IMG/VR virus record: IMGVR_UViG_3300014911_000001
Span: 111,797 to 175,796 of that record
Direction: 5' to 3' (one strand)
Length of the DNA stretch: 64,000 nt
DNA from: a virus
The first letter of the stretch is position 1; each line of letters begins with the position of its first letter. The translations under genes were made by a program, and so were the position numbers. Positions 7,494 to 35,288 of this stretch are shown in pieces. The notes below the pieces were generated by a model. It was not told the DNA's origin. It made no database searches and saw only the letters and a program-made list of their open reading frames with translations.

Positions 7494-7509
7494 GGTATGT
7501 TGTCTTGAG

Positions 7510-7743: not shown

Positions 7744-7758
7744 TATTAGGAGGTTATT

Positions 7759-8616: not shown

Positions 8617-9791
8617 TGAGATTAGAGGATGCTGAAAGCAAGCAGTATGTATTTAGTTTTAGTGGTGCTGATTATATACCATTTGCTTTTGTGGGGGGGC
8701 GGCTTCGTGCGCTCCCCCTTGTTATGACGATAACGGCTTCTTTTGTTGCTGATCAGGCGCCAGCCTTAACCCTTGGTAGTAAGGTACCACTGACAATAAG
8801 GCCCGGTCATGTTACTGTCGCGGGCTCCATTATAGGGGCTGTTAGTGATGTACATCCTCTCTTTCCATTGACATCATTGTTTGTTAGGGATGTGCGCTTC
8901 GGTACTGATGTTGCGCTAAGGACATATGAATTACCCCTTTTTGATATTATTATTGTTGGCATTAATGAGGTAGGTAGGACGACCGTTGCGAAGGTTTATG
9001 GTGCACGCATCCAGCAGGGAGGATATACGTATTCAATCCAGGATCTTTACACAGAAACAACATTTCAGTATAGGGCGCTGGATATGGATGAACCTCAGGT
9101 AGCACCTGTTATGGAAGGTGAGATGATGCATTATATTAATCCAGCCATATTTTTTGACCGGCTTAATAGGATTCCTATCTTAGCGAAGAATAAAGCGGAG
9201 GTTGGTGCTGTATTGGGTGTTATATTATCATTGCGTGCGAAACTTATTGACATCTATGACAAGATTGCTAATGCAAAGAGTATAGAAGAGCGTGAGCATT
9301 GGTTGCAGGAAGCTGAAAATGTGCAGGAAGAAATCCGCAGGTATGAGGATGCGCTTAATACGACATTGAGGTTATATTCGAGGACTGTTATATCAGGTAA
9401 TCAATTTGCGGATGCTGTATTTGGGGATTTGGTTTGGCCGCGGGATTTGAAGTATGTTGAAGTGGAGAAATCTTATGTATATCCGCAGCGTTATTATGCA
9501 TCTGTTGGGGATACACAGAAGATTGGTACCTATCAATGGCGTTCTGAACATGAGACTGATATGTGGAATATATATACCTATTTCCAACAGATTTATATAA
9601 TGTTACGAGATTCGTATCGAAAAGGAGATGTACCTATGCATGATTTATATAGGAGGTGCTTAGATTTCCGTGCGAAGTTAATAAGTGCTATGTCAACCTT
9701 TAAGGAGGATAAATATTTACATCCATATTATGGTGAAGCTTTATTGAAGCGTTATGATGAGTTAATTAAGCAGATAAGAGAGAGACTATGA
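8613..9791 (+). CDS. Tail-tube paralog with helical C-terminal extension
   Basis: N-terminal half aligns by eye with the tube (SFSGAD...VAGSII...LPLFDIIIVGINEVG...YSIQDLYTETTFQYRA). The start may be ATG 8616 (TGATG overlap). Confidence 0.7.
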   Translation: MMRLEDAESKQYVFSFSGADYIPFAFVGGRLRALPLVMTITASFVADQAPALTLGSKVPLTIRPGHVTVAGSIIGAVSDVHPLFPLTSLFVRDVRFGTDVALRTYELPLFDIIIVGINEVGRTTVAKVYGARIQQGGYTYSIQDLYTETTFQYRALDMDEPQVAPVMEGEMMHYINPAIFFDRLNRIPILAKNKAEVGAVLGVILSLRAKLIDIYDKIANAKSIEEREHWLQEAENVQEEIRRYEDALNTTLRLYSRTVISGNQFADAVFGDLVWPRDLKYVEVEKSYVYPQRYYASVGDTQKIGTYQWRSEHETDMWNIYTYFQQIYIMLRDSYRKGDVPMHDLYRRCLDFRAKLISAMSTFKEDKYLHPYYGEALLKRYDELIKQIRERL

Positions 9792-11794
9792 TAGTCCGCC
9801 GTTTTGTAAATACTAACATATATAAGAATCTACAGGAGAAGCAGGGCATAACGGACAATGATGGTACTGTTTCCTATAAGCCGGCTGAGGAAACGACTTT
9901 TGATATACCTTATTTAGAGGATTTTTATACCCCTGCGCTTATTACGCTTTACTTTGATGGCATAAGGATAGCTGAGGCTGTTTTTGTGGAATATGTTTAT
10001 AATGATCAGAAGATACCTGTTTATGGTTATGGGGATCGTTATGTTCGTGCATTTGAGGAGGGGCATCATTTAATAAGCGGGCGCATGGGGTTTTTATTTA
10101 AGGAGACGGCTTATTTATCGAGTGTTATTGATTTGGTATCAGGAAGCCGGCTTATTACCACACCCGGAGGTGAAAGTGCTGTATATGCATTGCTGCAGAG
10201 AGTACTGAGCGATCCTGAGGTTAATGAAAAAGTTGAATATATGAGGCAGATTTTGACATCGGTATTTGGGTTGGAGCCCTTCAAGGTTGGGCAGCTTAAT
10301 GCTAATCAGATGATTAATTTATTAAAGATTTATAAGTCTGTTATTTATATGACTGTGAATCCCCGCTATGGCGCCACAGGTCCTTTGGTGACAGAGGCAA
10401 TGAACAGTAGCGAAGCGCTTAGTTCTCCCTCATCGCCACTGGTATGGAAGATCGGCTCGCCTCATGTTATATCGGCAATGTTAGATATGGAGGATGTCTT
10501 TGGTGAGGTGGCTATTGAAGGATTGTGGGAATCAGTGGAAGATGCATTATGGAGTAAGGAGGTGCCGGGCTTAGACATTGCACCCATCGTAGAGCATGAT
10601 TTAGGTTATACAGGTTATGGGTATGTAATATCTGACAAAACATTTGATGTTTTTATAAGGTATGGTGCTGATGGATCAAGCATTACAGACCATACAGTTG
10701 AGGTTATCAATGATGTCCATCTTGTATCAAGTGGCAAGAGCATCAATGTTGGCTCGCCTGATCTTGTTGTTGAGGTTTTGGAGTTCATAGCGCGCACTAA
10801 CAATCGGCGGCTTAATATCTACCAGCATAAACAGGTATCGGAGACGGATGAGCTTATTCCACCGCAAATGGATAGTGGTATGAGCGAGGGGAAGAAGTAT
10901 TTTAGTTATAAGAAAGAAGAAATGGAGAATGCGAGGGTCGGGGATCAGGAAAAGGAGAAATATAGAAAGCTTTCAGAAGAGGAATTGAAAGAAATGCGGG
11001 CTACCTTGTGCGGTCGTTGTATTGATGAAAGATGTAGTATCAAGGTGGGTAGTTTTGGGTTTAACACGTTGAAAGATAGCTTGTTTGAACATACAGGTAT
11101 AACATTAGATATTAGCTATCGAGGTGAGACTCATTTTGGTCCTTTGGTCATATATGAAAAACCGACATTTACTTTGAGTGTGGAGAAGACAGTTGATAAT
11201 TTGTTGGCTAATATTGCAAAATTATCGCAGGCTGCTACAAGGGGATCATTGGGTGGATTTGTAGTAGAGAAAGGTTTGTTGGAAGTTGTGTGGGGGCAGC
11301 ATCCTAAACTTGAGCAGCAGGGCCCTCATAAAGTAAGGACAGTTGGTTGTCCTTTTGCGTTTGCGGAGGCGGTTGTAGAAAATTTGAAGCCATCATTTTG
11401 TTTACGCTACTTGAATGCTCTTTTAAGGTATAGTGCCCCACCGAGTGCTATTATTGATGATTTGCGTGCTATTTTAGATTATGTTACTTCGCATTCAGGT
11501 ATCGCAAGTTTGAAGTTTCCTATAGCTATTGCTATGGCTGGTCATGGTGATGAGTTTAATAAAAACATTTCGCAATATATGAAAGGGGTTCATGTGCCAC
11601 AATTTGATGTATATGATGGATTAAAGATAAGTGTAAAAAAAGCACTACTACAAATAAATGAAGGGGAAAATACTCCTTATAAATTGGCTGTTTTGCCGTT
11701 GTACATAATTATGATTGATTTAGCTGACCGTGAATCGGTATTGAATTTTAAAAATAAGCTTGACACATGGACATTCCATCATTATTATTACTGA
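9788..11794 (+). CDS. Third tube-fold protein (tube initiator / baseplate-proximal tube-like)
   Basis: ITLYFDGIRI...QKIPVYGYG...GHHLISG, and later FDVFIRYG...INDVHLVSSGKSI...VEVLEFIAR, complete a split tube-like pattern. Confidence 0.6.
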   Translation: MIVRRFVNTNIYKNLQEKQGITDNDGTVSYKPAEETTFDIPYLEDFYTPALITLYFDGIRIAEAVFVEYVYNDQKIPVYGYGDRYVRAFEEGHHLISGRMGFLFKETAYLSSVIDLVSGSRLITTPGGESAVYALLQRVLSDPEVNEKVEYMRQILTSVFGLEPFKVGQLNANQMINLLKIYKSVIYMTVNPRYGATGPLVTEAMNSSEALSSPSSPLVWKIGSPHVISAMLDMEDVFGEVAIEGLWESVEDALWSKEVPGLDIAPIVEHDLGYTGYGYVISDKTFDVFIRYGADGSSITDHTVEVINDVHLVSSGKSINVGSPDLVVEVLEFIARTNNRRLNIYQHKQVSETDELIPPQMDSGMSEGKKYFSYKKEEMENARVGDQEKEKYRKLSEEELKEMRATLCGRCIDERCSIKVGSFGFNTLKDSLFEHTGITLDISYRGETHFGPLVIYEKPTFTLSVEKTVDNLLANIAKLSQAATRGSLGGFVVEKGLLEVVWGQHPKLEQQGPHKVRTVGCPFAFAEAVVENLKPSFCLRYLNALLRYSAPPSAIIDDLRAILDYVTSHSGIASLKFPIAIAMAGHGDEFNKNISQYMKGVHVPQFDVYDGLKISVKKALLQINEGENTPYKLAVLPLYIIMIDLADRESVLNFKNKLDTWTFHHYYY

Positions 11795-11809
11795 TGTTAA
11801 ATCTTAACA
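11760..11809 (+). promoter_or_regulatory. Sigma70-like promoter with a downstream palindrome
   Basis: TTGACA (11760-11765), 17-bp spacer, TATTAT (11783-11788); inverted repeat TGTTAA-atc-TTAACA at 11795-11809. Confidence 0.6.
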
Positions 11810-11821
11810 AAGGGGTGGTAT

Positions 11822-12499
11822 ATGGATCCCAAAGAGTATAAACAGCAGCATGGTGTTGATATTTTTGCGGTTGGTTGTAATGTTCTGAAAAATACTTATA
11901 AGGCATATTTTCCTATTATGTCTGTTGCTGATCTTACGACTGATGTTATGTATAATGACCCTGCGCGGGTTCATCTATTAAATGTTGTCCGTAACCTTGT
12001 TGAAAAGATAAGTTTAGGAACGATGACTGATGATGATTTGGTTGCTGTCATGGGTGGTTGCATTCATCTCGAAAAGAATATGCAACCTATTGATCCGATG
12101 TCTGTAGAGAATGCTATAGCTAAGCTCTTAGCTGAACGGTGGATTACTGCGATGGGCTTCTTTGATACACCGCGGGTTTATGTTGCTGAGGTGGATGGGC
12201 AAACATGCGATGTTGTTGAAACTGTTTATGCAGGTAAGGTTTACAAAATTTATCTAAAGCCTATATCAGGTGACAATGATCCTCGTATTGAGCATGTGTT
12301 GAAGGTCTTGGGTAGAGAGTATACGATTGATCAGACATATGATGTATTTAGAAGCTCGGTTGTGAAGGTTGAAGCCGCGCCCTTTGGGCAGCTATCGTTT
12401 GAGGATGTTGAACTTAATGATAAAGTGCTGTTTGCAAGTGCTGTTATGGCGTGGATTGAGAATACAGGTAGCATTGAATATGATTACGAAATTATATAA
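11822..12499 (+). CDS. Hypothetical protein, probable tail assembly chaperone
   Basis: Synteny only (between tube genes and the tape-measure-like gene); RBS GGGGTGG. Confidence 0.45.
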   Translation: MDPKEYKQQHGVDIFAVGCNVLKNTYKAYFPIMSVADLTTDVMYNDPARVHLLNVVRNLVEKISLGTMTDDDLVAVMGGCIHLEKNMQPIDPMSVENAIAKLLAERWITAMGFFDTPRVYVAEVDGQTCDVVETVYAGKVYKIYLKPISGDNDPRIEHVLKVLGREYTIDQTYDVFRSSVVKVEAAPFGQLSFEDVELNDKVLFASAVMAWIENTGSIEYDYEII

Positions 12500-12876
12500 T
12501 GAATCTTATACGTATTAAGTATGAGGATACCACCTATGAATTTAATTATCCCACCCTATTTGATTACTACTTGTTTATTGATGGTCAAAAAGTTCGGGTA
12601 TTTGATCGCCTCGCATTAAAGGATTATAGTATTCCATCAATTAAGAAGGTGCGCATTATAACCATCCTCTTTCGTCACTTCCCCGCCTTTGCTACAGAGG
12701 ATGAGGTATTTTCCAATATACCGGATGCTGGTGGTTTGATTTATTTAATTCGGGCATTTGGATATAAACCTCACGAATTATTGCAGTTAAATCCTTATGA
12801 GCTTGATTTTGCGGTAAGGTTGGCGGAATATATAAACAATCCAAAACTAGAGAATGACAGTAGTCCGCAGGAATAA
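12499..12876 (+). CDS. Probable second tail assembly chaperone
   Basis: TAATG coupling; C-terminal AFGYKPHELLQLNPYEL resembles the G-x2-P-x-E-x3-L motif of tail chaperones; directly before the tape measure. Confidence 0.5.
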   Translation: MNLIRIKYEDTTYEFNYPTLFDYYLFIDGQKVRVFDRLALKDYSIPSIKKVRIITILFRHFPAFATEDEVFSNIPDAGGLIYLIRAFGYKPHELLQLNPYELDFAVRLAEYINNPKLENDSSPQE

Positions 12877-15800
12877 GCCCTTTCTTTTCCAGAGTGATTT
12901 AGCACGCATACGCACAGATGAGACATTGCGCAGCCGTTATGGGTGGGGTCGTACACTTTTGCGTTTTGGAGTGGCGATGGCTTCCTTTGCTGTTTTGTCT
13001 TATGGTGCGCGTTCCTTATCGCGTGCATGGCGTGCATTGGCCACATCTGGAGCATTATCACGGAAGTTTGTTGAAGGCGTTAAGGTAGTAAAGAAGTTAG
13101 GGCTTGAGCAGGGTAACTTACTTGATGTAATATTATCAGTATCTAGGCGTGCGCGTCGAGTTGCTTATAAATATGTTAAGTGGTCGCAAGATTATAGGGA
13201 TGCGTCGCGGCTTCTGCATTTTGGTAAGGCATTAAGGAAAATATGGAGCGGTGGTAAAGCATCATTAAAGGGTTTTAGGAAGGCGCGTGAGGCTTATCGA
13301 CGGGTTGGATTACGAGGTGCATTGTTTGGTGCCTTTTTGCGTGGTGCAGAAAGAGGTGTTGGATTTGCGATTTTATCTTCGGCTGCTGATGCATTAACAC
13401 ATTCATTTATAACACCTGCGGATAGAGAGAAGACAAGAAAGTATGGTCCTGTTGCTCGTGTGAAGCGTTTTTTCACTGATGCTGTCCTATTTAGTGGATT
13501 ACAAGGACTTTGGGGTGTATCAAAAGTTGCCTTTCCTACCTATATACATAGGTATAGCCCACAAATACAGCGTTTTCTTACCCGCATTGGAGCGCCTACT
13601 TATGTGGCTAAGTTTTATGGATGGAGGCGTCGCTTCTATGATTATCTAATTCGTGCTATAGAATATAAGCAGAAGTTTACTCAGAAATTGCAAGGTGCTA
13701 ATATATGGCAGCACATAAAGCAGCAGATGAAGGAGCATCCCGGGTTAGGTGCTATTGCAACCTATTTGCGGGAGCAGATAAGGGAAGCTCATCTACATGC
13801 TAAGAAATCGTTTAGGAGGCCGGGTGGATTTCCACCAAGGAGTGGTTATGATACGGTTATAACAATGATGAATTATGCGAAAGAGGTTAATGTTAAGGAT
13901 CCTAAGTTTGCAGCGGAGATTGCAGCTCAAGCTGTTGGACGTTATAAAGGTGTGAGTAAGTGGCGGCGGCTTCTTAATATCGAACGTGAAAGGTTGACCA
14001 AGAAGCAGGCTGTTGCTTTCAGGGAGATGCTTGAGAAAATGGGGTTTAGCAAGTCATGGATCGAGACATTAAAGGGGGAGGAACGCAAGTTTTATGAGAA
14101 TCTGTATTACCGTGTGATGAGGGGACCATTGTTCCATGGTCCCGGATGGTTTGAAGTAGCCGGGCAAAAGTTTTCACAGTATGAGACGCGTTATTTTGTA
14201 AAAGGAATTCTCCAGAATCTATATGCTGGTCGATGGAGGGGGGTTACACGCATTTTGGCTTCTGCGGCGGGCTTAGACCTCTATGCCAACCGCAGACCTG
14301 TATTTATCTTCCATCCTACCATGGATATTCCGATGAGCGTTCCTATACCGACTGATGAGGGTGTTCGTATGCTACGCTTGGTAACCGAACGTGGTAATGA
14401 TCGGGTTCGTCATGGGATTGTATTCTTACAGAATAAATTGTACAGATTATCGCCGACAGAGGAGGGTGGTGAATATTTTGTGGATAGGGTTATAGAGAAT
14501 GTTAAATTATATGAGAGCCCGGCTTATAACATATTAAAGAGGGAGTTAACGCAGTATTATATCAAGCAGAGGCGGCGCACGGATGAGATAGGTTTGCGTC
14601 CACCCGGTGAATATGTTAGGGATATAATCAGGAAATTATCGCGGGGTGTTGATAAGGCTAGCTTAGAGGAATTGGTTAATGTATATAAGTCAACCCGTTC
14701 GACGGCCCATATTATCTTTGGTAAATTGTTATCAAAGAAGGAGGTCCGTGAGGTTGCATCGCAGATCTTGGAGCAATTAGGCGCGAGTAGAGCGCAAAGG
14801 ATCTTGCAGATGGATGAGGCATCATTAATCAGGGAACTTGAGAAGGTTATAGAAAAGCCTGCACAGGTAACGGAGCGGCTTCGTAACAAGTTTATCTATC
14901 TTATAAATGCATCACGGAGTAGGATGAGGACTATGAAGGATCTTTTGAATCAGGAGTTTATAGGTTCTGGATATGCAGAAGCACGGGCTAGGCATGTTAT
15001 TGAGTCGTTCTTAATTGAGCAGCATTTGACACCAGAAATAAGGGCGAAATTCTTTAGCAGGCTTGCTGAGGAGCAGTTGATCGGGAAGTGGATAAGGAAG
15101 CCGGCTTATACACATTTCTTCAAAGCATTAGCAGAGCTAGCACCTGTTGAGATGGATGCAGAAGCTCTAAGGTCTACTATAAAGGGCGCGCTTAATGATA
15201 TTGTAGTCGGTTGGAAAAAATTACCTACAGTTGATCCATTTAGGCCGATATCTGCCTTATTCCAGTATGGTGGATTGGGTATCCACAGGTTATTTGAACC
15301 TACCATAGAAGGTATACGGGTAATGGGTACTACAGTACCATTTACTGTTGTTAGAGAAGGTATGAGTCCATTTAAACGGTATACGGTAACAAGTTTATTG
15401 TTTTCCCATCACTTACGGCGCATATGGGGATTTATGGATTATGTAAGCAAAGCTCCTCGCAAGTTTCCTATTATCAGGCATTTATTAAGGCGATTAGACC
15501 CTAGATTGGCTGATACGGCGCATATCTTTCCATTTGAGACTAATACTACTGGTTGGACGGCTTCAGATATGATAAAGAATTTATGGAAGCCGGCGGCTAC
15601 ATTATTGGCATTAGGTGTAGGATATAAGGCTGTTGATACATTCTTTGATGAAAGTGGTTTATTTGAAGGGACTGCATTAGGAGAGGGGTTGACACCTGCT
15701 ATACTGGATGCATATGCATTAGGTCGTCTTTCCTTGGCAAGAGTATTGGATATTGCAGGTGTAACTGATGCAGCGCGGTATTTAGAGGGATTAATGCCGG

Positions 15801-18685
15801 GGTCTACGACATGGTTGCCGGGTGCACTATATGGCGTATGGAAGTTTGCACCTGCGGGGCCGGCGGCTTCCGCTATGGGTGCATTAATAATGGGTGCTGT
15901 TAATAAAATGTTAGCGCCATTTTTGCCTGATTTAACAAAGAGTTATGATCAACTGAAAAGGATATATAGAGGTGAGGAGTATGTGCCTGTAAGGAGAGCA
16001 AGGTATTGGCCTCTATCTTTAACTCCTTGGGAGGGTTATGATATTGAATATTGGCGGCCTTCTCTATGGTTCATTGTAAGACAGCAGGCAAAATACACTC
16101 CTGATATAAGTGGTAGCAAGATACAGTCCTTGTTACAGGGTGACTGGTTGTTTGGTTATAATCCATTGCGTATGTTTGATCCATATGCTAAGGAAAGACA
16201 GCATTATTTCTCTAGGCCGGCGCCTCTCACACAGTTGCCATTTTGGGATGTGCCAGTTATAGGGCCGTTTTTAGCTTTAACTGTTGGGCAGGTATTGAAA
16301 CCACAGCAGATGATGCATACAGCCTTTTTGAAGGAGATGTATCCCGGTGAGTATGGTGTGCCGAAGGGTGAAGTTGTCACACCGGAGGATTTATCTAATC
16401 CTGATCAATATGTATCAGCTATGCAATCCAATCAAGCTGTTGCAATGTTAATGAATAGATATGCGGGGCGGGCTTACAGGCATGTCACAGGAGATATGCT
16501 TAATAGAGGTATAACAGAAACTCTGTATAGATCGATGGAGATGGCGGGCTTAAGAGGTTACCTAACATCGTTATTATTAGGAACACAGACACCGCTTAAT
16601 TTCAGTAGGTATCTAGAAATGTATGGTGAAAACGAAGGGTTTTTATCTGAGTACTGGAACATGGAGCTTAATGATGTAGCTGGTGGATTGTCTGAGATGA
16701 TAAGAAGATTCCGGCCTGACAAGCGGATAAATACAGTTAACCCTATCCCCAACCTTATGGCACAATTTTTACCCGAAGGAGAGTATGGTGGTAGCGATTT
16801 TCTACATGGTGATCCTTATACTAAAATTCCTATGGGTTTCATAAGATTGCCAGGGACTGGATATGAAGCAACACATAATGTAATGCATACATTTCCTGCA
16901 TCGTTAAGAATGTTGGGTAAGACAGTAACAGAGATAAGGGACATTATGGCCGGGTGGGAGGATATTATTGAGGAGAGAACGGAACGGGAGCTAAATCAAT
17001 TTTATGATGCCAAAAAGATTGTGCAGGGATTGCTTGAGATATCAGGACAGAATGTTGAGATGGATGTGCAGATTTACGATCCATATAACAACATTGTTGG
17101 TACCGTTGATGCAGTTGTGAGGAGAGGGCGATTTAGGCAACCTATTATTATACGTCCTGTTAGTGAGGAGGAATTTAGGGAGCTTGTTGCCCCGAAGGAG
17201 GAGCATGCGAGTCAGGTAAATTTTGCTATGAAGTTTTTTGGTGCGAAGACGGGTAAATTGATTTATGTGAATGTAAGATCGCCTGAACAGATTAAGACAT
17301 ATACCATCTTTTTTGATCCATCAAGGTTAAGAGAGGATATAAGTGCATTAAAGAGGGCGAGGGAACAGGCTGGTGAGTTGTTAAGGGCAGGAGCTGTTTT
17401 TGATTATGGTCGTAGTTATAGCTGGTTTGATAGATATAGAATTTTAGCTGATGTTGCTCCTTTATCTGATCAATATAAGCAGGCGCGTGCTATTGTATTG
17501 AAGCAATTGCAACAGGGATTTTTGCCACCTGAGTTATGGGATGAGGTGCATGAGATTGAGCGAAGGCGGCGGCTTCAGCTTTTAAAATATCCTATGTATG
17601 TGCGTCGTTTTACTGGTGAAAATGTTGTTGAAACGGTGCAGAAGCTTTTGCATCCGCCTAGGCTTTCCGGCAGGGAGTTATCGCTATCTTTGAATCCATA
17701 TTTAAGGTCGCCTGATGAATACAGTTTACCAGAAAGGATCGTAGGTAGTATCTGGGAGACATTTACACATTTACCAACACCTTATAATAGGAAATTCTTT
17801 TTCCAGTATTCACCGTCAGAGATTTATAAGTATTTCCATTTATATGATCGGGAGTATAAAGCATGGACGCGGCCTATTGAGGATTGGGTTAAGCCACAGG
17901 TTAGGACGATGCTTGCTTCACAAGGCGTAATGGAGGGCGCGGCTTCATGGGCTACAGCAGGTTATGCTGTTGGTAGGTTATACGGCGGGCTTATAGGTGC
18001 AGTGGCTGGATCCATATATGGGTTGATACCTAAGCCGCCGATGATACCGGAGGATGTGGAGAAGGCGCGCGAGGCTTATTCGTATTATGATAAATTGAAA
18101 TATGCACGTAACATGCAGTTTTATGTTATGACAGGTAATAGAATATATGAGGAGCGTGCTGAGCGGACCTTATTGGGTGCGAAGAACTTACGTGATTATG
18201 TAAGAGCATTACCACGTTTTGAGCGCCCATTTACTGTAGCGTTTATGAACATAACTGATGAGAGTGAAAGAGAAAGGATAAGGCAGATTATATCACCTGA
18301 GGCGCGTCGTGCCTTGGATGCAGCATGGGCGAGACGTGAATTGCGGTATAGTGTTGAAGAAGGTGGTTATGAAGAGGTACCGAGAACACCAGCTAATTGG
18401 GCTGGTTGGATTTTTGCGATACCTGATGAGGATATTTATGTGAAGGAGCTTGAGCAGCGGGGTGTTGATCCTCTAGATTTTGGTTATGGTTATCATGGTC
18501 AGGCAGCTGCTGTACGCCGTCTATCTGAAGATTTTGCTATACCTGATCAAACTGTAGACGTCGTAAATATTATGGATGTACAGGAAACGATAGTAAGGTC
18601 ATTGCAGGCGCAGGGTATTAATGCTTCTGTATCCATCATGGGATTTGATAATAGTAGAAGAGTTGATGTTGTTATTTATAAATAA
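12854..18685 (+). CDS. Tape-measure-like / ejected virion protein with a degenerate PD-(D/E)XK (Cas4/RecB-like) domain
   Basis: 1943 aa, helical, very basic N-half, several Gly/Ala-rich hydrophobic segments, tape-measure position; nuclease-like segment at about 17050-17340. Confidence 0.65.
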   Translation: MTVVRRNKPFLFQSDLARIRTDETLRSRYGWGRTLLRFGVAMASFAVLSYGARSLSRAWRALATSGALSRKFVEGVKVVKKLGLEQGNLLDVILSVSRRARRVAYKYVKWSQDYRDASRLLHFGKALRKIWSGGKASLKGFRKAREAYRRVGLRGALFGAFLRGAERGVGFAILSSAADALTHSFITPADREKTRKYGPVARVKRFFTDAVLFSGLQGLWGVSKVAFPTYIHRYSPQIQRFLTRIGAPTYVAKFYGWRRRFYDYLIRAIEYKQKFTQKLQGANIWQHIKQQMKEHPGLGAIATYLREQIREAHLHAKKSFRRPGGFPPRSGYDTVITMMNYAKEVNVKDPKFAAEIAAQAVGRYKGVSKWRRLLNIERERLTKKQAVAFREMLEKMGFSKSWIETLKGEERKFYENLYYRVMRGPLFHGPGWFEVAGQKFSQYETRYFVKGILQNLYAGRWRGVTRILASAAGLDLYANRRPVFIFHPTMDIPMSVPIPTDEGVRMLRLVTERGNDRVRHGIVFLQNKLYRLSPTEEGGEYFVDRVIENVKLYESPAYNILKRELTQYYIKQRRRTDEIGLRPPGEYVRDIIRKLSRGVDKASLEELVNVYKSTRSTAHIIFGKLLSKKEVREVASQILEQLGASRAQRILQMDEASLIRELEKVIEKPAQVTERLRNKFIYLINASRSRMRTMKDLLNQEFIGSGYAEARARHVIESFLIEQHLTPEIRAKFFSRLAEEQLIGKWIRKPAYTHFFKALAELAPVEMDAEALRSTIKGALNDIVVGWKKLPTVDPFRPISALFQYGGLGIHRLFEPTIEGIRVMGTTVPFTVVREGMSPFKRYTVTSLLFSHHLRRIWGFMDYVSKAPRKFPIIRHLLRRLDPRLADTAHIFPFETNTTGWTASDMIKNLWKPAATLLALGVGYKAVDTFFDESGLFEGTALGEGLTPAILDAYALGRLSLARVLDIAGVTDAARYLEGLMPGSTTWLPGALYGVWKFAPAGPAASAMGALIMGAVNKMLAPFLPDLTKSYDQLKRIYRGEEYVPVRRARYWPLSLTPWEGYDIEYWRPSLWFIVRQQAKYTPDISGSKIQSLLQGDWLFGYNPLRMFDPYAKERQHYFSRPAPLTQLPFWDVPVIGPFLALTVGQVLKPQQMMHTAFLKEMYPGEYGVPKGEVVTPEDLSNPDQYVSAMQSNQAVAMLMNRYAGRAYRHVTGDMLNRGITETLYRSMEMAGLRGYLTSLLLGTQTPLNFSRYLEMYGENEGFLSEYWNMELNDVAGGLSEMIRRFRPDKRINTVNPIPNLMAQFLPEGEYGGSDFLHGDPYTKIPMGFIRLPGTGYEATHNVMHTFPASLRMLGKTVTEIRDIMAGWEDIIEERTERELNQFYDAKKIVQGLLEISGQNVEMDVQIYDPYNNIVGTVDAVVRRGRFRQPIIIRPVSEEEFRELVAPKEEHASQVNFAMKFFGAKTGKLIYVNVRSPEQIKTYTIFFDPSRLREDISALKRAREQAGELLRAGAVFDYGRSYSWFDRYRILADVAPLSDQYKQARAIVLKQLQQGFLPPELWDEVHEIERRRRLQLLKYPMYVRRFTGENVVETVQKLLHPPRLSGRELSLSLNPYLRSPDEYSLPERIVGSIWETFTHLPTPYNRKFFFQYSPSEIYKYFHLYDREYKAWTRPIEDWVKPQVRTMLASQGVMEGAASWATAGYAVGRLYGGLIGAVAGSIYGLIPKPPMIPEDVEKAREAYSYYDKLKYARNMQFYVMTGNRIYEERAERTLLGAKNLRDYVRALPRFERPFTVAFMNITDESERERIRQIISPEARRALDAAWARRELRYSVEEGGYEEVPRTPANWAGWIFAIPDEDIYVKELEQRGVDPLDFGYGYHGQAAAVRRLSEDFAIPDQTVDVVNIMDVQETIVRSLQAQGINASVSIMGFDNSRRVDVVIYK

Positions 18686-25746: not shown

Positions 25747-25910
25747 AAATTATAGTTAGAGTACCACCAAATGCAGATATTGTTCGTGTTGAAGCGGCAA
25801 TACGTAATGCTTTGATGGCGTATGATTTAGATGTACGGTCGATACAAGTGGTAACAACAGCTTTCGGACAGGAGGAGTATGCCAGAGGACTCGAAAAAAC
25901 CGAGGCTTGA
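25743..25910 (+). CDS. Small hypothetical protein (55 aa), absent from the ORF track
   Basis: ATG overlaps the upstream TGA (ATGA); reads MKIIVRVPPNADIVRVEAAIRNALMAYDLDVRSIQVVTTAFGQEEYARGLEKTEA* and fills the apparent intergenic gap. Confidence 0.55.
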   Translation: MKIIVRVPPNADIVRVEAAIRNALMAYDLDVRSIQVVTTAFGQEEYARGLEKTEA

Positions 25911-28900: not shown

Positions 28901-31275
28901 AAGAGGAGGGTGATCTTTTAAATAGACTCATAGCACGTTACATGGCGCTTGTATCGCAAGATATGAAATATTTACAGCAGTTACCACCTACCCCTATAGT
29001 TGATATGGAAGCGGTGCCTACTGATGATGAACTTATACATAGGAAAAATAGTGGTTTATGGGAGCATTTAAAGCAGCATTACACAGAGTTTGTAAAATTG
29101 GAAGCTGTATTGTCACAGAAATTTGGTGATGAATTCTTTAAGGATTTTGATGAACGGGTAAAAGCTGAGCGTGAGGAATTACGGAAACTAGAAGGTGGTG
29201 GATTATACCGTTGGGTTGTTGCAGATCGCTACCGTGAAATAATTAATGATGAATATGTGACATATGGTATACCGTGGCAAAGTTTGAAGGATCAGGCACC
29301 CTTTGATGAATTGTTGCCATTGGTAAAACAGAGACATGCTGTTGTTGTCAGTCTTATGAGGAATTTGTTTGAACTAGGAAAGAATTCTTCTGAGCATGAT
29401 TTCTGGGCCGCGGCTTCTTCAAGATTTGAAAATAGGCTGTCCTTCTTTAACAATGGTCTTGATCAGATCGCTGCTGAATACGGTGATAATTCAATGGAGA
29501 TAATTGAATTTTATGATAATGCTTTGGTGAAGGAGCAGGATTATTTATCAGCTCTCGAAGAGGCTTATGAGAGTCAGTTGGTTAGGGAGGAAAAGAAAGA
29601 ATCTATAGAGAAAAAGGATATGCCATCCAGTACTATACCACCAGCTGGTACTCCAAATCGTCTGCCTGAGTTAGAAGCAAAATATAAGGAGATCATAGGA
29701 TATGAACGAGATCTATTAGAAGCGGCACAGGATTTAAAAGATCCTTATTGGAAGAATGCATTGGAGGAGTTTAACAAGCGTGTGGCTAATTATGAGGGAG
29801 ATATTAAGGAGGCCGCGGGCCCAGATTTAGAAAAAATTTATGAGAATGCTATAGCTTATGAGACAATGATGCTTGATAATTATAAGACCAAATATCAGAA
29901 GCAGAGGGCTATTGGGGATTATACGAAGCCGCCAATGCCCCAGCATGTGGCGCCGGTAACAGTGCCAAAAGCAAAAGTAGTACCACCTCCTAAGGAGATG
30001 ATTATTGTTCCGGATGATGAGATTGAAATGTGGCGTGATTTGTTAGATTTTGTGGCTGATCATTGGATCGGTTCTAGTAAGTTTAGGGATATTGATTTAA
30101 CAGAAAAGATAGATGCTACTGATATAGACCATTCTTTCCAGAGTATAAAATCGGCGTTACGCGAGGCTTGGAATCGTTATAGTGAGATAGATCTGAGAGC
30201 TATTGCTGTGCATGTAACTGATAGCCATCCAGCTAGTGATAGCTATCTGGTAGGATCATCATTGTGTAGGCCATTTCTTATAGAGGGTCAAGAGGAAAAG
30301 ACAAATCGTAAAGAGGGAGGTGCATATACAATTTATCATATAATGATTGGTAATGGGTTTAGTAGAAATATTGATCATGAGATAATAGGTTATGATACGC
30401 ATTATGATGGCAGGATAATGACAAGTCGACCATTAACCCAAAAAGCATATCATGTAGGTGGATTGAATCATCTTGCTGTTGCGGTTGCATGGGTAGGTGC
30501 TACATTTGCGGATATAAGAAGCCCTAATGTACAATCTTTTGCAACAGTTTGGGGAATACAAACAGTTACACCATATGCTTTTATATCATTTTGGGATAAT
30601 GTTATCGAACCAGCTTTACATTCATTGGAAACACCAACATATGATACATTGAGGGAAAGAGCATTTGATGTATTAAGTGATTCTGGATGGATTGATAGTA
30701 ACTTCTTCACTAATAAGAAAACAAAGGGAGTTGTACCTTTTACAGAGAAATTCTATGAAGTTGCACCTGTATATGATTTTACTTATTATTTAAAAAATGA
30801 GTTAGAGGTTGCATGGCCTGGGTATGGGGAATTGCTTTCACCTGGCAAAATGTCTGCTAAAGGTTGTGCGTGGAAGCGTGGTGTCAGAGAGGCAGGGGTA
30901 TATGTAGAAAAACATGCAGGGAAATGGCGGCTTGGCACTATATATGGTATGAGTAGAATGGCTTGGGATAGATTAGTAAAGACAGTAGGTATTCTCAATA
31001 TGTTATTTAGACAGGCATTAGGTAAGGATATTATTATAGCGGGTCATTCGGAATTATATGGATTTATACCCTCATCATTGGGGCAAAAAGGTAAGGTTTG
31101 TCCAGGATTTAATTTACGTGGTAATCGTAGAGGCAATAATGACTTATTATCAGATATAAAATATGCGAAGGCATATTTACCAGATTTGGGTTATGAGTTA
31201 TGGCTATCACCAACCGCAGAGAAATATTGGGAGAAATATTTTAAAGCTGTTATTAAGGCTATAGGAGAATCATAA
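25879..31275 (+). CDS. Tail-associated lysin: degenerate M23/LytM domain, Pro/Glu linker and C-terminal Amidase_2 (N-acetylmuramoyl-L-alanine amidase)
   Basis: M23 scaffold AVYALNEGVV...GYIVRVKN...TEYRNL...IKPGEKVLGGQYLG; amidase motifs IAVHVT, YHIMIG, GRIMTSRP...AYHVGGLN...VAWVG, IAGHSE, KVCPG; RBS AGGAGG. Confidence 0.75.
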   Translation: MPEDSKKPRLDYRTAIIGTVPVIVTDFRVVENFSYQQIQTLRMDNNVIYQIPGRNLYVIIGLEFPDGYSINTGLRELHAMMFLAPIVPIYSPWLNDMVIASFDQYRGLAELMGVNTDVNIYALRRLTMRSVESPYAIGVEMEIAPMDLDAARLKPQFLVDEEAARAKSEFIARLFELYETMKRSEDPLAYLDGFTSIYNDYKRAVANKVVDFLWQSELFKRWISIMYPEGDKSLLPVQGVRLKRQLGIWRQTPFANIVIHYLHMADDIVSLRDEIHKYVSDVASSTAKMIRDYVADYEQIQQVGAPRRFFQVLQTLYNSIKGGIRTRVDSSLMGTIAFGNQIREMLLEVALRMDNGQRGKFTNYVQRILSLTAGPNLVVPEMMMEGESAIVTMSDFLTRFFAELGKKLDTDSYKIFVDLFADVMSERIAYWELFSKVMKYETFDFGKYRATPTRWEYTVTNKFVPLRIGDAVAPLLQHLGTDSPIFRVQYACGDGLAIRQLKQLRDDVDKAVQQINEIGSYFPWITRYIEPIILSSTDGLIEFLGMQHAVLDSVSINPMEEAAMVAEATCTFVASDITIFDYEQFEFADTVGANNLSCLLLFYALRKWYQEIFGKDLPPSGTVAETVQPLKEGEDISKLRIPFKLFDVMDSQNVTKRAFQYAMTLSKAENQNYYNFTIYNSDKKAVYALNEGVVTNVTNNLVDGYIVRVKNGDFVTEYRNLGKLAEDIKPGEKVLGGQYLGEARFFASGTYPTEVQEKEVKMLPNLLGLGVPEVVQEYKKKVKTSGPAPYGVFVLFMYKNIPLDLEIYKGKEVFEKAANISAPTDIYAYFWTHTKDDKITWAGHTYDVKNNPYVQGYVNSVLGGIPILESISNRVFDEKTFFDVLIRLLMEKCMTCVSSFDIAGLEQKLANELGMEPASATDKAVPTQEEYVPVLGRPYFTHPSLEEMKLPEPQLPPKVTPAPEEGKMEVPEEKVEKPQLSAPKELPEEAPPVEVPPSEPPMIEEGEKEEGDLLNRLIARYMALVSQDMKYLQQLPPTPIVDMEAVPTDDELIHRKNSGLWEHLKQHYTEFVKLEAVLSQKFGDEFFKDFDERVKAEREELRKLEGGGLYRWVVADRYREIINDEYVTYGIPWQSLKDQAPFDELLPLVKQRHAVVVSLMRNLFELGKNSSEHDFWAAASSRFENRLSFFNNGLDQIAAEYGDNSMEIIEFYDNALVKEQDYLSALEEAYESQLVREEKKESIEKKDMPSSTIPPAGTPNRLPELEAKYKEIIGYERDLLEAAQDLKDPYWKNALEEFNKRVANYEGDIKEAAGPDLEKIYENAIAYETMMLDNYKTKYQKQRAIGDYTKPPMPQHVAPVTVPKAKVVPPPKEMIIVPDDEIEMWRDLLDFVADHWIGSSKFRDIDLTEKIDATDIDHSFQSIKSALREAWNRYSEIDLRAIAVHVTDSHPASDSYLVGSSLCRPFLIEGQEEKTNRKEGGAYTIYHIMIGNGFSRNIDHEIIGYDTHYDGRIMTSRPLTQKAYHVGGLNHLAVAVAWVGATFADIRSPNVQSFATVWGIQTVTPYAFISFWDNVIEPALHSLETPTYDTLRERAFDVLSDSGWIDSNFFTNKKTKGVVPFTEKFYEVAPVYDFTYYLKNELEVAWPGYGELLSPGKMSAKGCAWKRGVREAGVYVEKHAGKWRLGTIYGMSRMAWDRLVKTVGILNMLFRQALGKDIIIAGHSELYGFIPSSLGQKGKVCPGFNLRGNRRGNNDLLSDIKYAKAYLPDLGYELWLSPTAEKYWEKYFKAVIKAIGES

Positions 31276-34200
31276 TGCCAGAGGATAGAACAAATATTAT
31301 CTCCGATCCAAGCTCTAAGCCTACTGGAGATGGGAAGACTAAAGATAAGGGTTATGGGATGTTGCCTCTAACAGCTAATTTGTTTTTAGATGATATGCTT
31401 CAATTTACGAATGAAGCATTTCCTCTTGCATCTGCGATGTCTATATTGAGTGGTGATTATCATTTTATTGTGCGTAATTGGACGACGGCTTACCCAGATA
31501 GGTATATACCTGACAGGATTTTAAATAAGAGGGGGTCGACGCCTCTATTCTACTATGATAGTGATATAGGAATTAACAATAAAGTTATACGTGCTCTTGT
31601 TAATGAGACTCGGTATCAGGCTAATATGATTCTTAATCAGTTGGCGGCGTTTACTAATATGCCGGAGGATCTTATTGAATCTATTAAGCAACAATTAAAG
31701 AAATTTTATGGACCTGAGGCCGCCAATAAGTTTGAAAATGAAATTAAAAAACATACTTACGGGAAGAAGTTAGATTTAAAGGAATACAGGAAATTTCTTG
31801 AACAATTTAAAGAGCTTTATTTAGATGATTCGCGGCTTCAGTACTTGCTTGACTCATCGGATAAGCAGACAAGCAAGTTGTTAGGTGGCTTGGATGCGCG
31901 GCTTGGTCTATTATCATGGTTAAATGTCCGCAATTACGCGCGCTTATACATTAAGCTTTTGGAGCTCAAGGAGATATTGGAGCAGATTGGAAAGGGAGAG
32001 GGAGCCGTGCCTCCTGATGCTGATGCGCTTAATCTTATAAAGGCGATGATAATAGCTAAGTACAAGGTTGATAATCCCAAGGCATCAGAAGCAGATATTT
32101 CAGCTAAGGCTGCTGAGATAGATGCTGCTTTTGGTGATGAAGCAAAGTTAGCACAAGTGTTGACAAAATATGGTAAGGAGCTCGCTGACATATATAGTTC
32201 ATATGATAAATTAAGTAAGTTTGTCGATAAGCTTATTAATGTTTGGACAAATGATCCATTTTTTAGCGGGTTGTTATCGGCGTATAGGGCAGAGAATAGA
32301 AGTATTACTGAAATTTTATGGTTGGCAAGGGATATTGCCCATGTTGATGCCGTGTTTGCGGCTAAAAATGTAGAAGATGCTGTGAATACCTATTTCCAGC
32401 ATTCCCTTATGGTGGGTCCTAAAGAATTTGAAACACAGTTAGATATTTTGTACCGCATTCTGGTTACATATCCTCTAGAGGTTGCCTATAAAGTGAACCG
32501 AATTTATCCAACATTCAGGATTTTCCTTGTTCATCCGGGTACGGGGCTTATTTACTCATTCAGAGACTTTTATTCACCAAAGGCTGTTGAGAGTATTGAT
32601 ATTTATAGAGACAAGTTAGGCACGGCAGATGTATGTCGTATAACGGTTTCCAATCGGGGTGGTCAGTTTGTAACAGATCTCCCAGCATTTCTTGAGCCAC
32701 ATGATATTATTGATGCAGGGGGTGCAAGGACACCTCTTATGTTGAAGCCCGGCATGTATCTTATTGTAAAATTAGGTTATGCTAATTTGGAGAATGATCT
32801 TAGGACTAGGTTTATAGGGCGCATAACAGATGTACAAATGCAGGAAGGGCGCATTGTTGTTATGGCACAAGGTCTTGGTACTCAGTTGTTGATGGTACCC
32901 GGGCAGGATGAGGATCATAAGGGTGAGATTAAAGTCAAAGATGGCGGAATATTAAGGTTATTGGGGTTTGGTTCTATTATAAGTAGTTATGGGGCGCTTA
33001 TTGCTCATTTATTATTGCAGACGCGCGGGCTTGGTGATCTAGGTCGCCGTGTGAGTTTATTCCGTAGGTGGGAGCTAGGGTATCGTGGAGGTATATATAA
33101 GACACATCGCGGGCCTATCATGTTTAGTTTGTCCAATGCATTAAATAGACTTCTTCATAATACGGCGCATCTTTTACCGTTTTTTGCTAAAAAAATAGTA
33201 GGTGTTTTTAAACATTCACCATTATATCATTTTCTGCCTGCGAAAACGCGTGAGAATATAGATAAAATGATTGATGCCTTGCCTTTATTGCCAACTATAA
33301 TGGATGCATACCGTCATTATCGAGATGTAACACATAATATTGGTGCGCTTATGGAGAATATTTATATTGATGCTGGTGTTGGTGGGGCTAGTACATATAC
33401 AGGCGCGGGTAAGTTTGCGTGGGATATATGGGCTCAATACTTGAGAAGTATATTTGGTGGTATTGGACGTGGGCGTTCAGCTAAAGACATTCAATCGCAG
33501 CAGAGACCTATTAATAGTGAGGTGGTTCCATGGGGTATTGAGTACTATACTCGTGCAAAGTCCCTATATGATTGCTTGAAGGAAGTAGCATGGTTCTTCC
33601 CCGGATATATTTTATATACACCGTTTTATAATGAGGATTTTGTGTATAGTGCGCGGGCCACTATATTTATAGGTCAGAAGACATTTTATTACAGATACAG
33701 AGATGATTTATATTCAAGGGTTGAGGATGGTCCTGTTATCAAGAAAGCATTATTGGAAATCATTGATGATGCGATACAGAATATAGGTAAATTAAAGAAA
33801 GTTGACTGGGTTTATCGTTATGGGCAATTGTTTTATCTATTTCCTGATATAAATTCCATCTTGGGCAAGTACAGCTCTTCACGTATGAGGTCATTGCCGA
33901 CAACACAGCCAGGGAAACTTCCCGGTTATTTAGATCTAGTTTCTGGCGGTCGTGCACATGCTGTTCCACAAACGGTAACAGAAAGTAAAGGTGATATAAC
34001 CGGGGAGGAGTTTAGGGTTCAATTGCAGGATCTTAGGACTCTTATCGAAACAGAGGGTGAATCATTACATAAAACGGAGAAGAACATCTTCCACTTAAAG
34101 TTCTTGTTTAGACCTGAAAATTATTCTCCCGATGTTTATAACTATGTATTATCGATGAAGCCGGAGGTTGCGTTGCATATGGTATCAGCGCGCCCGCTTC

Positions 34201-35288
34201 AAAAAACCCACTTTATTAATAGTGAAGAGGATATTATAGCCAACAATCTTGCCGCCAATGCAACTGATATGCATAATGCGGTGGCTTATTATTTCCCCCA
34301 CGATCCATTTATGTGGGCTCCGGGGATAGCAGTGCCGGGGCCTGATGAAAATAAATTTGATAACTTCTTTATGTATGTGTTGGATGATTCGATTCCTGAT
34401 GATATATTAACACCTGTTGAATTTTATGAGCCGAATTCCGATCCCAATGTATGGTTTGACTGGCGTCGCAGTTTGGCATTCAAGAAGCGTGTAAAGAAAA
34501 AAATTCTGGAGCCAAAGGATCTATTAGAAGCATTCCAATTTTTGCCGGCTTACATGATGCAGCCGCTTAACAAACTTATGGAAGAGATTGCTAAGATGTA
34601 TGCGGGTGAAGTCATTATTGTTGGTATGCCCACAATCGATCCGTGGGATATAGTTTACATGATGGATCTAACTAATGATATGGTTGGTTTACTAGAAGTA
34701 GAAGGGGTTACTGAGCATTTTAGTGTTGAGACTGGTTATGTTACCGTCATACATCCATCACTTTATACTACTATTGATATGCTTGATAAGTATAGGGCGA
34801 GTGTATTGCATCGTGTGTTTCATACAGTTTATGCGTCGACATTAAAAGGTGCTATTTTAAAGGCGGTATTGACGGCTTTTGGATTAGCCATATTTGGACC
34901 ATTCATAGGTGCGGCGGCCGCCTTCATAGGTATATCAGCTGGTTGGTTGCTGATACCATTAATCATATATAAAGTAACCACAGGTGTTTATAAGACTTTG
35001 AAGGAACATACAAGTCTGATGGTATTTAATGCAGCTAGGGTTATGTTAAGGAATGCTTTATCATTTATACCTGTATGGTATAAGGGATTCCCATATGTGG
35101 CAGGGATACAGGGTTACAGAAGAGATACCATAGAGGTTATGATGTTGGATAAGTATCGTAATAATCCTGTGATACGGACGTTCATTGGCATAGATCCGTA
35201 TCGGCTGTGGTATAATCAGGGGAAAATAGATAATTGGTATATATTTGGGACATTCTTTAAGTCTTTAATTGGATTTTATCCATTCTGA
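31275..35288 (+). CDS. Baseplate hub protein (T4 gp27 / phage late control D-like) with a C-terminal hydrophobic hairpin
   Basis: CRITVSN...LKPGMYLIVKLGY...RFIGRITDV...VMAQGLG; KSLYDCLKEVA; GEVIIVGMPTIDPWDIVYM...EVEGVTEHFSVETGYVTVI. Confidence 0.75.
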   Translation: MPEDRTNIISDPSSKPTGDGKTKDKGYGMLPLTANLFLDDMLQFTNEAFPLASAMSILSGDYHFIVRNWTTAYPDRYIPDRILNKRGSTPLFYYDSDIGINNKVIRALVNETRYQANMILNQLAAFTNMPEDLIESIKQQLKKFYGPEAANKFENEIKKHTYGKKLDLKEYRKFLEQFKELYLDDSRLQYLLDSSDKQTSKLLGGLDARLGLLSWLNVRNYARLYIKLLELKEILEQIGKGEGAVPPDADALNLIKAMIIAKYKVDNPKASEADISAKAAEIDAAFGDEAKLAQVLTKYGKELADIYSSYDKLSKFVDKLINVWTNDPFFSGLLSAYRAENRSITEILWLARDIAHVDAVFAAKNVEDAVNTYFQHSLMVGPKEFETQLDILYRILVTYPLEVAYKVNRIYPTFRIFLVHPGTGLIYSFRDFYSPKAVESIDIYRDKLGTADVCRITVSNRGGQFVTDLPAFLEPHDIIDAGGARTPLMLKPGMYLIVKLGYANLENDLRTRFIGRITDVQMQEGRIVVMAQGLGTQLLMVPGQDEDHKGEIKVKDGGILRLLGFGSIISSYGALIAHLLLQTRGLGDLGRRVSLFRRWELGYRGGIYKTHRGPIMFSLSNALNRLLHNTAHLLPFFAKKIVGVFKHSPLYHFLPAKTRENIDKMIDALPLLPTIMDAYRHYRDVTHNIGALMENIYIDAGVGGASTYTGAGKFAWDIWAQYLRSIFGGIGRGRSAKDIQSQQRPINSEVVPWGIEYYTRAKSLYDCLKEVAWFFPGYILYTPFYNEDFVYSARATIFIGQKTFYYRYRDDLYSRVEDGPVIKKALLEIIDDAIQNIGKLKKVDWVYRYGQLFYLFPDINSILGKYSSSRMRSLPTTQPGKLPGYLDLVSGGRAHAVPQTVTESKGDITGEEFRVQLQDLRTLIETEGESLHKTEKNIFHLKFLFRPENYSPDVYNYVLSMKPEVALHMVSARPLQKTHFINSEEDIIANNLAANATDMHNAVAYYFPHDPFMWAPGIAVPGPDENKFDNFFMYVLDDSIPDDILTPVEFYEPNSDPNVWFDWRRSLAFKKRVKKKILEPKDLLEAFQFLPAYMMQPLNKLMEEIAKMYAGEVIIVGMPTIDPWDIVYMMDLTNDMVGLLEVEGVTEHFSVETGYVTVIHPSLYTTIDMLDKYRASVLHRVFHTVYASTLKGAILKAVLTAFGLAIFGPFIGAAAAFIGISAGWLLIPLIIYKVTTGVYKTLKEHTSLMVFNAARVMLRNALSFIPVWYKGFPYVAGIQGYRRDTIEVMMLDKYRNNPVIRTFIGIDPYRLWYNQGKIDNWYIFGTFFKSLIGFYPF

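Follow-up and report, generated by a model that had tools for sequence, protein, structure and literature searches.

Our analysis of a viral DNA stretch of 64,000 nt (the window; positions 111,797 to 175,796 of IMG/VR virus record IMGVR_UViG_3300014911_000001, a 175,796-bp record rated complete by CheckV, of which the window is the final 64 kb) points to a giant tail-module protein, giant B, that combines a DEDDh exonuclease with a double-psi beta-barrel RNA polymerase (RNAP) core and that would be delivered through the tail in the manner of gp96 of the Thermus phage P23-45, a virion two-barrel RNAP fused to a tape measure (PDB 8h2m, 8h2n; PMC10770324). We put the probability of this reading at roughly 0.62. 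Giant B (g2353; 2353 amino acids; 18685–25746, plus strand) occupies the slot that is called tape measure in Bacillus phage 0305phi8-36, and is laid out as an N-terminal hydrophobic helix, a DEDDh-like region, an RNAP-like core, and a C-terminal hydrophobic helix. Its gene lies in a block (11760–35288) that, judged from the sequence, encodes the tail-interior and ejection proteins of a phage from the 0305phi8-36 lineage with a long contractile tail. The basis of the reading is fourfold: synteny, profile-based family membership, catalytic residues, and the polymerase fold of one family member.

The RNAP-like core of g2353, as aligned to the core of the giant-B family, comprises residues 1539–1832 (23299–24180, plus strand) and contains the two elements of a catalytic-barrel motif of the beta'/Rpb1 type. 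In particular, R1755-x-P1757 (23947–23955, plus strand) is followed, at a spacing of 44 residues, by the loop D1802-W-D-T-D1806 (24088–24102, plus strand), and a conserved Y-x-D-P-L also precedes the loop. The motif satisfies the polymerase filter of Chaban et al., [RK]xPx{20,100}DxDxD (PMC10770324), and with a stricter form of the filter g2353 is the sole fitting open reading frame (ORF) of the 176-kb genome. A HMMER search over 1.8 billion representative proteins returned one 94–95%-identical protein and two distant homologues, P0002 (2268 amino acids) and P0003 (a 671-amino-acid fragment), each approximately 24% identical to g2353. Residues R1755, P1757, D1802, D1804, and D1806 are invariant across P0001–P0003, and the metal loop reads GDWDTD in g2353, GDYDGD in P0002, and GDFDAD in P0003. 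The proteins in the same slot of phages WH1, KLEB27-3, and ME3 carry NRYPT...ADHDGD, NRYPT...ADYDGD, and REP...GDHDQD, respectively, at an equal relative position.

Other searches with g2353 recovered little. Scans of IMG/VR and metagenome contigs with the g2353 family revealed near-identical phages only; a word-index homologue search revealed the 94%-identical protein only; Pfam, PHROG, and PDB sequences gave no match to g2353; the ESM Atlas gave no usable match for the C-terminal part of g2353 or for P0003; and neither BLASTP of g2353 against 0305phi8-36 gp146 and MTATph1 CDS0027 nor tblastn against phage records detected anything.

The assignment of g2353 to the giant-B family is supported by gene order. 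The order sheath, tube(s), two chaperone genes, giant A, giant B, hub is common to 0305phi8-36, WH1, KLEB27-3, ME3, and Moorella phage MTATph1, and in the window a baseplate wedge gene comes after the hub. A search of IMG/VR with the giant A protein alignment yielded 78 loci with giant A relatives, among which a tube gene lies upstream in 72 loci and a giant ORF lies immediately downstream of giant A in 61 of the 71 giant-A-bearing loci. A single gene separates g2353 from the chaperone slot, and the hub genes follow g2353 directly, which places it in the tape-measure slot. The original prediction, a note made from the letters of this DNA, had suggested a search for the same gene quartet in large-phage genomes and had named separation of the polymerase-like gene from tail genes as a result that would count against it; the order recurs in the five named phages and in the 78 loci, and homologues of the polymerase-like gene always adjoin tail genes.

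The catalytic motif is a property of the family as a whole. Among 50 non-identical complete giant B proteins, 42 carry it at 55–92% of their length, with a median of 0.78 and a value of 0.75 for g2353; the corresponding counts are 28/1000 (2.8%) for shuffled sequences and 6/69 for giant A. In a core alignment of 41 sequences with a mean identity of 15%, only the R, the P, and the three D columns are invariant. Profile–profile comparison places g2353 within this family. Specifically, hhalign aligned the g2353 family with the giant-B family at a probability of 89.4% and an E value of 2.1e-6 over 574 colinear columns (g2353 residues 1405–2073), and a second run gave 85.6% and 5.5e-6 over 240 columns (g2353 residues 1539–1832); in both alignments R-x-P falls on R-x-P and DxDxD falls on DxDxD. 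In addition, the giant-B family hidden Markov model (HMM) matches P0002 at the motif region with a domain E value of 1.3e-5. Taken with a C-terminal hydrophobic helix at residue 2241 of 2353, which has its counterpart 111–128 residues before the C-terminus in 9 of 9 giant B proteins inspected, the slot and the two hhalign alignments indicate that g2353 is a gp146-like giant B and, on profile evidence, a highly divergent representative of the giant-B polymerase family.

The possibility that g2353 is unrelated to this family, and that its motif and profile match arose by chance in a long, fast-evolving, mostly helical protein, is in our estimate very improbable. The pattern on its own does match unrelated giant proteins (3 chance matches) as well as the 2.8% of shuffled sequences, direct HMMER comparison provides no link between g2353 and the family, and the hhalign probabilities lie at 86–89%, not above 95%. 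A chance match, however, would have to account for motif residues that are invariant across homologues of 24% identity, for the coincidence of the family's gene slot, relative motif position (0.75 against a median of 0.78), and C-terminal hydrophobic helix, for the match of the family HMM to P0002 at the motif site, and for the superposition of R-x-P on R-x-P and DxDxD on DxDxD.

The C-terminal Gly/Ala-rich hydrophobic helix of g2353 (residues 2241–2255; 25405–25449, plus strand) lies 112 residues short of the C-terminus, and the tail that follows it is conserved in P0002 and P0003. Within residues 2241–2353 (25405–25743), the tail after the helix is the best-conserved part of the g2353 family, with invariant G-D-x-F-S, D-x-x-W, and P-E-L-P, and it may dock to the hub or the tube. 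The phages nearest by giant A, represented by loci L014 (13315–20559) and L015 (13276–20781; giant A E values 1e-124 and 1e-115, respectively), encode giant B proteins of 2414 and 2501 amino acids with RFP/RYP...DTDGD and, as in g2353, a hydrophobic helix at the N-terminal end. No similarity between g2353 and these two proteins was detected by BLAST or by HMMER, which indicates that giant B evolves very fast.

The family profile and a structure model of one family member both lead to cellular-type RNAPs. Searched against PDB sequences, the family profile matches the beta' subunit of the phiKZ non-virion RNAP (E 2e-4), then AR9 beta', and then many Rpb1, Rpo1N, and beta' chains, with the matches falling at the catalytic loop; Pfam PF00623 (RNA_pol_Rpb1_2) gives sub-threshold matches at the motif site in WH1 gp095 and KLEB27-3 gp034. 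An AlphaFold model of the core of family member L074 has a predicted local distance difference test score (pLDDT) of 70.4 and a predicted template-modelling score (pTM) of 0.71. With this model, Foldseek returned at least 487 PDB matches at E <= 1e-3, the top 50 of which are all RNAP largest subunits (with probability 1.0 to beta'/Rpb1), and VIA-align gave Z scores of 9.6–12.2 over 270–425 residues to Rpa1, Rpb1, Rpo1N, and beta', and of 7.2–7.8 to P23-45 gp96, P74 gp62, and RDR2. The single-chain proteins gp62 and RDR2 align over L074 model residues 18–773 at Z scores of 7.3–7.8. The polymerase half of the exonuclease–RNAP candidate put forward in the original prediction is supported at the level of motif and profile for g2353, and at the level of fold for the family.

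Compared with predicted viral structures (BFVD), the L074 model matches WH1-like and ME3 proteins, siphovirus and Microcystis phage proteins, polymerases of giant viruses and poxviruses, and fragments of crAss-like proteins. The siphovirus match, A0A8S5SD80 from an uncultured phage, is annotated 'minor tail protein' (E 7e-12), and the Microcystis phage match comes from MaMV-DC (E 1e-6). Tail-module polymerases may therefore reach beyond the 0305phi8-36 lineage.

The DEDDh-exonuclease-like region of g2353 (residues 471–693; 20095–20763, plus strand) precedes the core and contains D476-x-E478, G-K-N599...E604, D628, and H688-x4-D693, in the order Exo I, II, III. These motifs are conserved in P0002 (23% identical), and the order in both proteins is that of DEDDh enzymes of the DnaQ/RNase T type; DnaQ and the giant-B family have Asp where g2353 has Glu604. 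An alignment of 30 giant B front parts yields the majority consensus D.ETLG / N...FD.P / H.A..D, and a profile of the front part, compared with the PDB, finds exonucleases of the PolB, PolC, and DnaQ types with E values of 1e-4 to 1e-3. Moreover, three giant B members match Pfam RNase_H_2, and MTATph1 CDS0027, a 1309-amino-acid front piece, reaches the Pfam RNase_T cut-off. Sequence comparison therefore supports a DEDDh exonuclease domain in the giant-B family and makes one probable in g2353 itself; the exonuclease half of the candidate has support from the family profile, and within g2353 from motifs only. Unlike known enzymes of the DnaQ/RNase T type, the giant-B domain is embedded in a giant tail-module protein.

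The pairing of the two regions admits another interpretation, namely that the two-barrel core acts in some other capacity, such as priming, RNA-templated synthesis, or DNA synthesis, and works with the DEDDh exonuclease in, for example, processing or repair of genome ends at entry. DNA polymerases typically have a DEDDh 3'-5' exonuclease within their own chain, and the PDB matches of the front part include the PolB and PolC exonucleases; RNA-dependent polymerases and PolD, an archaeal DNA polymerase, belong to the two-barrel superfamily (PMC10770324); and RDR2 is among the structural matches, at a Z score of 7.8. The top structural and sequence matches, however, are largest subunits of DNA-dependent RNAPs, and the known virion-carried two-barrel enzymes, those of phiKZ-like phages, crAss-like phages, and P23-45, are all DNA-dependent RNAPs. 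We accordingly regard such an alternative activity as improbable, and a DNA-dependent RNAP core as the preferred assignment.

Eight observations weigh against a functional exonuclease–RNAP in g2353. First, the loop of g2353 is DWDTD, not D[FY]DGD. Second, direct HMMER comparison of g2353 with other giant B proteins is not significant, so that the link needs profile–profile comparison or the intermediate P0002. Third, an AlphaFold prediction for g2353 residues 1300–2353, made with 4 sequences, is unusable (pLDDT 33), and the fold of g2353 is thus deduced via the profile link to the family. Fourth, no HMM recognises the exonuclease-like region of g2353, for which the profile link (E 0.26–0.58) is not significant. 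Fifth, neither g2353 nor the family yielded a second barrel (beta/Rpb2 type), which would supply two basic residues and one Asp to the active site. Sixth, 8 of the 50 family members, including gp146 of the type phage, have a giant B without the motif, which indicates that the domain is dispensable in some lineages. Seventh, an exact 11-mer count in intergenic regions revealed no repeated phage-specific promoter motif. Eighth, the block is preceded by a sigma-70-like site and the genome contains a weak sigma-like ORF.

As to the second barrel, conservation analysis and an alignment of the upstream region revealed no conserved K/K/D columns ahead of the catalytic barrel, and a profile built from the stretch 900–200 residues before the R-x-P arginine matched no polymerase in the PDB. 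In the L074 model, the residues that precede the catalytic barrel align with the N-terminal clamp of beta'/Rpb1, which suggests, for as far as the model goes, that any beta-like barrel sits further upstream than the modelled region. A separate candidate for this role, giant A as a beta-like polymerase subunit, was dropped: searched against the PDB, its profile matches no polymerase.

As to transcription signals, the sigma-70-like site is TTGACA-17-TATTAT (11760–11788, plus strand; 11/12 matches), located just upstream of the block and the top-scoring such site in 7300–13000; the 15 sigma-70-like sites in that interval, compared with 18.5 expected from shuffles, represent no enrichment. The sigma-like ORF, 244 amino acids long and outside the window, matches Sigma70_r2 only weakly, under the cut-off (E 0.003, 15 bits; genome 10897–11100, minus strand), and may encode a phage sigma factor for middle or late genes. 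The site and the ORF together indicate that the host polymerase probably serves at least part of the programme. Searches of the 176-kb genome revealed no T7-type polymerase, no PF00623 match, and no second, non-virion two-barrel polymerase, the last in contrast with P23-45.

On the strength of these observations, giant B could be a tape measure or tail-lumen scaffold and nothing else, its polymerase-like and exonuclease-like regions being inactive relics and the host polymerase transcribing everything. The non-textbook loop, the second barrel that was not located, the sigma-70-like promoter with the weak sigma-like ORF, and the persistence of the giant protein in gp146 and 7 other members that have no motif would all fit, and the tape-measure role itself rests on tail length (PMC2147016). 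Against this explanation, R, P, and the three Asp, the sole invariant columns of the 41-sequence alignment, are invariant also in the distant homologues of g2353, which points to selection on catalysis; and 0305phi8-36, in which the motif is lost, encodes a separate YonO-like polymerase (ABS83659.1; PMC7824862), a combination that fits replacement and not general inactivity. We therefore consider a pure scaffold unlikely, and retain an active exonuclease–RNAP as the preferred reading of giant B. Within a 43-sequence BLAST cluster, gp146 (L004:24080–31693, same record as L055) is the sole member without the motif, and its polymerase domain may have decayed after functional replacement by the separate YonO-like enzyme. 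In MTATph1, the giant-B slot (CDS0027–0031; L003:23387–30743) is broken by a transposase gene, CDS0028; the final piece matches the C-terminus of WH1 gp095, and DxDxD is absent from the MTATph1 pieces examined.

The closest functional parallel for giant B is P23-45 gp96. Both are giants in a tape-measure slot, have an R-x-P...DxDxD core with hydrophobic segments on the same chain, resemble other polymerases in sequence, as far as could be detected, at the motif only, and share the proposed role of leaving through the tail and transcribing entering DNA. The structural likeness extends to the family model, which aligns with gp96 at Z scores of 7.2–7.5. There are also clear differences: P23-45 is a non-contractile siphovirus, whereas the tail here is contractile; the polymerase of gp96 lies in the first 1200 of 5002 residues, whereas the core of g2353 lies at approximately 75% of 2353; g2353, unlike gp96, has a DEDDh-like region ahead of the core; and the giant-B family model fits multisubunit beta'/Rpb1 better (Z 10–12) than it fits gp96. 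Comparison by hhalign with the gp96 core gave E values of 0.057 for the g2353 family and 0.43 for the WH1/KLEB family, neither of which is significant. By analogy, g2353 would work like gp96 yet lie outside the gp96 sequence family.

The corresponding mechanism, already proposed for P23-45 gp96 (PMC10770324) and applied here as an analogy, would run as follows. Giant B would be assembled inside the tail; upon contraction, the hub and lytic domains would open the wall; giants A and B would then be expelled from the tube lumen; their hydrophobic helices would engage the membrane, with giant B staying at or in it; and the polymerase core of giant B would transcribe the first genes of the entering DNA. 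The tail thus probably delivers the phage's own transcription enzyme, as demonstrated to date only for a single, unrelated group of Thermus phages. The original prediction of one membrane-anchored machine, made up of the four giants and pulling DNA in by transcription, gained no support from the analysis. For this phage we can only infer carriage in the virion, ejection, membrane association, activity, template, and the role of the exonuclease.

The closest genomic parallel is 0305phi8-36 (Thomas et al. 2007; Hardies et al. 2007). The two phages share gene order, with giant A corresponding to gp145, the hub corresponding to the gp27-like part of gp147, and giant B standing in the gp146 slot and having a C-terminal hydrophobic helix in common with gp146. 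They differ in that gp146 has no R-x-P...DxDxD and has been read only as a tape measure, in a phage with a separate YonO-like polymerase, and in that the hub giant is a single gp147 in 0305phi8-36 and two ORFs here (1798 and 1337 amino acids). The tape-measure role of gp146 was assigned from tail length, and gp146 was described by Hardies et al. as alignable only over its last 60 residues (PMC2147016). Record notes annotate 0305phi8-36 gp145 and gp146 as 'identified as virion protein by mass spectrometry', and the giant counterparts in WH1 and KLEB27-3 are annotated as structural.

A third parallel is provided by the virion polymerases of crAss-like phages (phi14:2 gp66) and of phiKZ and AR9, in which cellular-type cores are carried in the particle to start transcription. 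In crAss-like phages the polymerase gene sits among the tail genes and its product is fused to long segments with no assigned function; crAss-like protein fragments, together with the AR9 and phiKZ beta' subunits, appear among the structural or sequence matches of the giant-B family. Several features differ: crAss-like phages are podovirus-like, with cargo in the head or muzzle, unlike the contractile tail here; phiKZ and AR9 package multisubunit enzymes in their heads; and none of these polymerases has a DEDDh exonuclease on its chain, unlike giant B.

The principle of a virion polymerase in the tape-measure slot is already known from P23-45; what appears to be new is its occurrence in a contractile tail, the position of the core towards the C-terminus, the pairing with an exonuclease, and how broad the family is. 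In the literature that we found, gp146-type proteins are tape-measure or structural proteins and the sole polymerase noted for the lineage is the YonO-like one, and the portion of the supplementary tables of Chaban et al. available to us does not list 0305phi8-36-type phages. The wider proposition, that the 'tape measure' of 0305phi8-36-type phages is an ejected tail-lumen enzyme with a DEDDh exonuclease and a cellular-type RNAP core on one chain, is more tentative, and we give it somewhat less than an even chance.

Virion-delivered polymerases allow a phage programme to start independently of the host, and the only proven tape-measure-fused case is that of a Thermus siphovirus. If the reading of giant B is true, a polymerase delivered by the tail would link DNA entry to transcription, and perhaps to trimming of nucleic acid, in contractile-tailed phages as well; a large, old lineage of contractile-tailed jumbo phages would have the same solution; the DEDDh exonuclease would be an unreported partner domain; and g2353 would be an extreme, intact outlier of its family, the phage itself encoding no further polymerase. 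Bacillus and Acinetobacter phages in culture belong to the lineage, as do dozens of uncultured phages, and since 2007 its giant-B gene has carried the annotations 'tape measure', 'virion structural protein', or 'hypothetical'. The idea can be tested directly in WH1, KLEB27-3, Edson, and ME3, cultured relatives in which the motif is retained, and 0305phi8-36, with the motif lost and a YonO-like enzyme present, and MTATph1, with a transposase-interrupted gene, provide natural contrasts on the need for the domain.

The block that contains giant B consists of seven plus-strand ORFs at 11822–35288, with successive overlaps of 1–32 nt, and all large ORFs of the window are on the plus strand. The overlaps are compatible with translational coupling, and, with the sigma-70-like site at their head, they agree with the original prediction of a promoter-like element followed by coupled genes. 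The four hydrophobic segments that it had cited in the two giants were likewise located, at residues 38 and 1709 of g1943 and at residues 29 and 2241 of g2353. The first two ORFs, g225 (225 amino acids; 11822–12499, plus strand) and g125 (125 amino acids; 12499–12876, plus strand), are assigned to the tail-chaperone slot by position only; in 0305phi8-36 this slot contains gp143/gp144, a two-gene chaperonin (PMC2147016). Neither g225 nor g125 has a Pfam or PHROG match, or a tblastn match in related loci.

Giant A (g1943; 1943 amino acids; 12854–18685, plus strand) is, by homology to 0305phi8-36 gp145, a conserved virion protein. Specifically, residues 880–1940 show 22–34% identity to gp145, WH1 gp096, MTATph1 CDS0026, and ME3 gp35 by tblastn and BLASTP, and tblastn with g1943 also matches the counterparts in Edson and KLEB27-3. 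The family has a well-conserved core at approximately 1220–1940, and also a Gly-rich hydrophobic segment. The hydrophobic helices of giant A itself span residues 38–51 and 1709–1725, and an N-terminal hydrophobic helix is present in approximately half of the family. A nuclease-like fold (Cas4/RecB, PD-(D/E)XK) that had been proposed for giant A found no support: its lone nuclease-type match is phrog_2506 'exonuclease' at E 0.0095, six family members have no Pfam match, and the family profile has no PDB match.

Downstream of giant B, the hub protein (g1337; 1337 amino acids; 31275–35288, plus strand) corresponds to the gp27/gpD-like part of gp147, which in 0305phi8-36 was assigned as a T4 gp27 / P2 gpD hub with wall-degrading domains (PMC2147016). 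In particular, residues 952–1165 match phrog_20474 (E 6.8e-18), and residues 944–1280 match gp147, WH1 gp094, KLEB27-3 gp035, ME3 gp37, and MTATph1 CDS0032 by tblastn and BLASTP; this homology, together with its place before baseplate genes, assigns g1337 to the T4 gp27 / P2 gpD hubs. The predicted hydrophobic hairpin is present at residues 1190–1231 (34842–34967, plus strand), with a hydropathy of 2.0–2.2. The preceding ORF, g1798 (1798 amino acids; 25879–31275, plus strand), had been labelled a wall hydrolase, a label for which we obtained weak matches only: M23-like PF01551 at residues 680–743 (E 4.5e-5; 24 bits, below the 28.7-bit cut-off) and the phrog_822 amidase at residues 1472–1542 (E 4e-4). 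No tblastn match to g1798 was detected in phage records or related loci. The hub giant is probably divided in this phage, with g1798 as its lytic front half. Between giant B and g1798 lies a candidate gene, g55 (55 amino acids; 25743–25910, plus strand), an ORF by coordinates only, which has no family match and no tblastn match in related loci.

The block is flanked by further tail genes: upstream, a sheath gene (1094 amino acids; 4147–7431), and downstream, the baseplate wedge gene (36354–37448). A tube protein of 285 amino acids and its two paralogues, longer at 392 and 668 amino acids (together 7759–11794), match phrog_9206, labelled 'major head protein', a label that appears wrong because the 0305phi8-36 record names the counterparts tail tube. 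The same phage, with proteins 100% identical, is also present on a 147-kb IMG/VR contig (IMGVR_UViG_3300005098_000017), and a variant 94% identical in protein is present on a 78-kb metagenome contig (Ga0190337_1000001).

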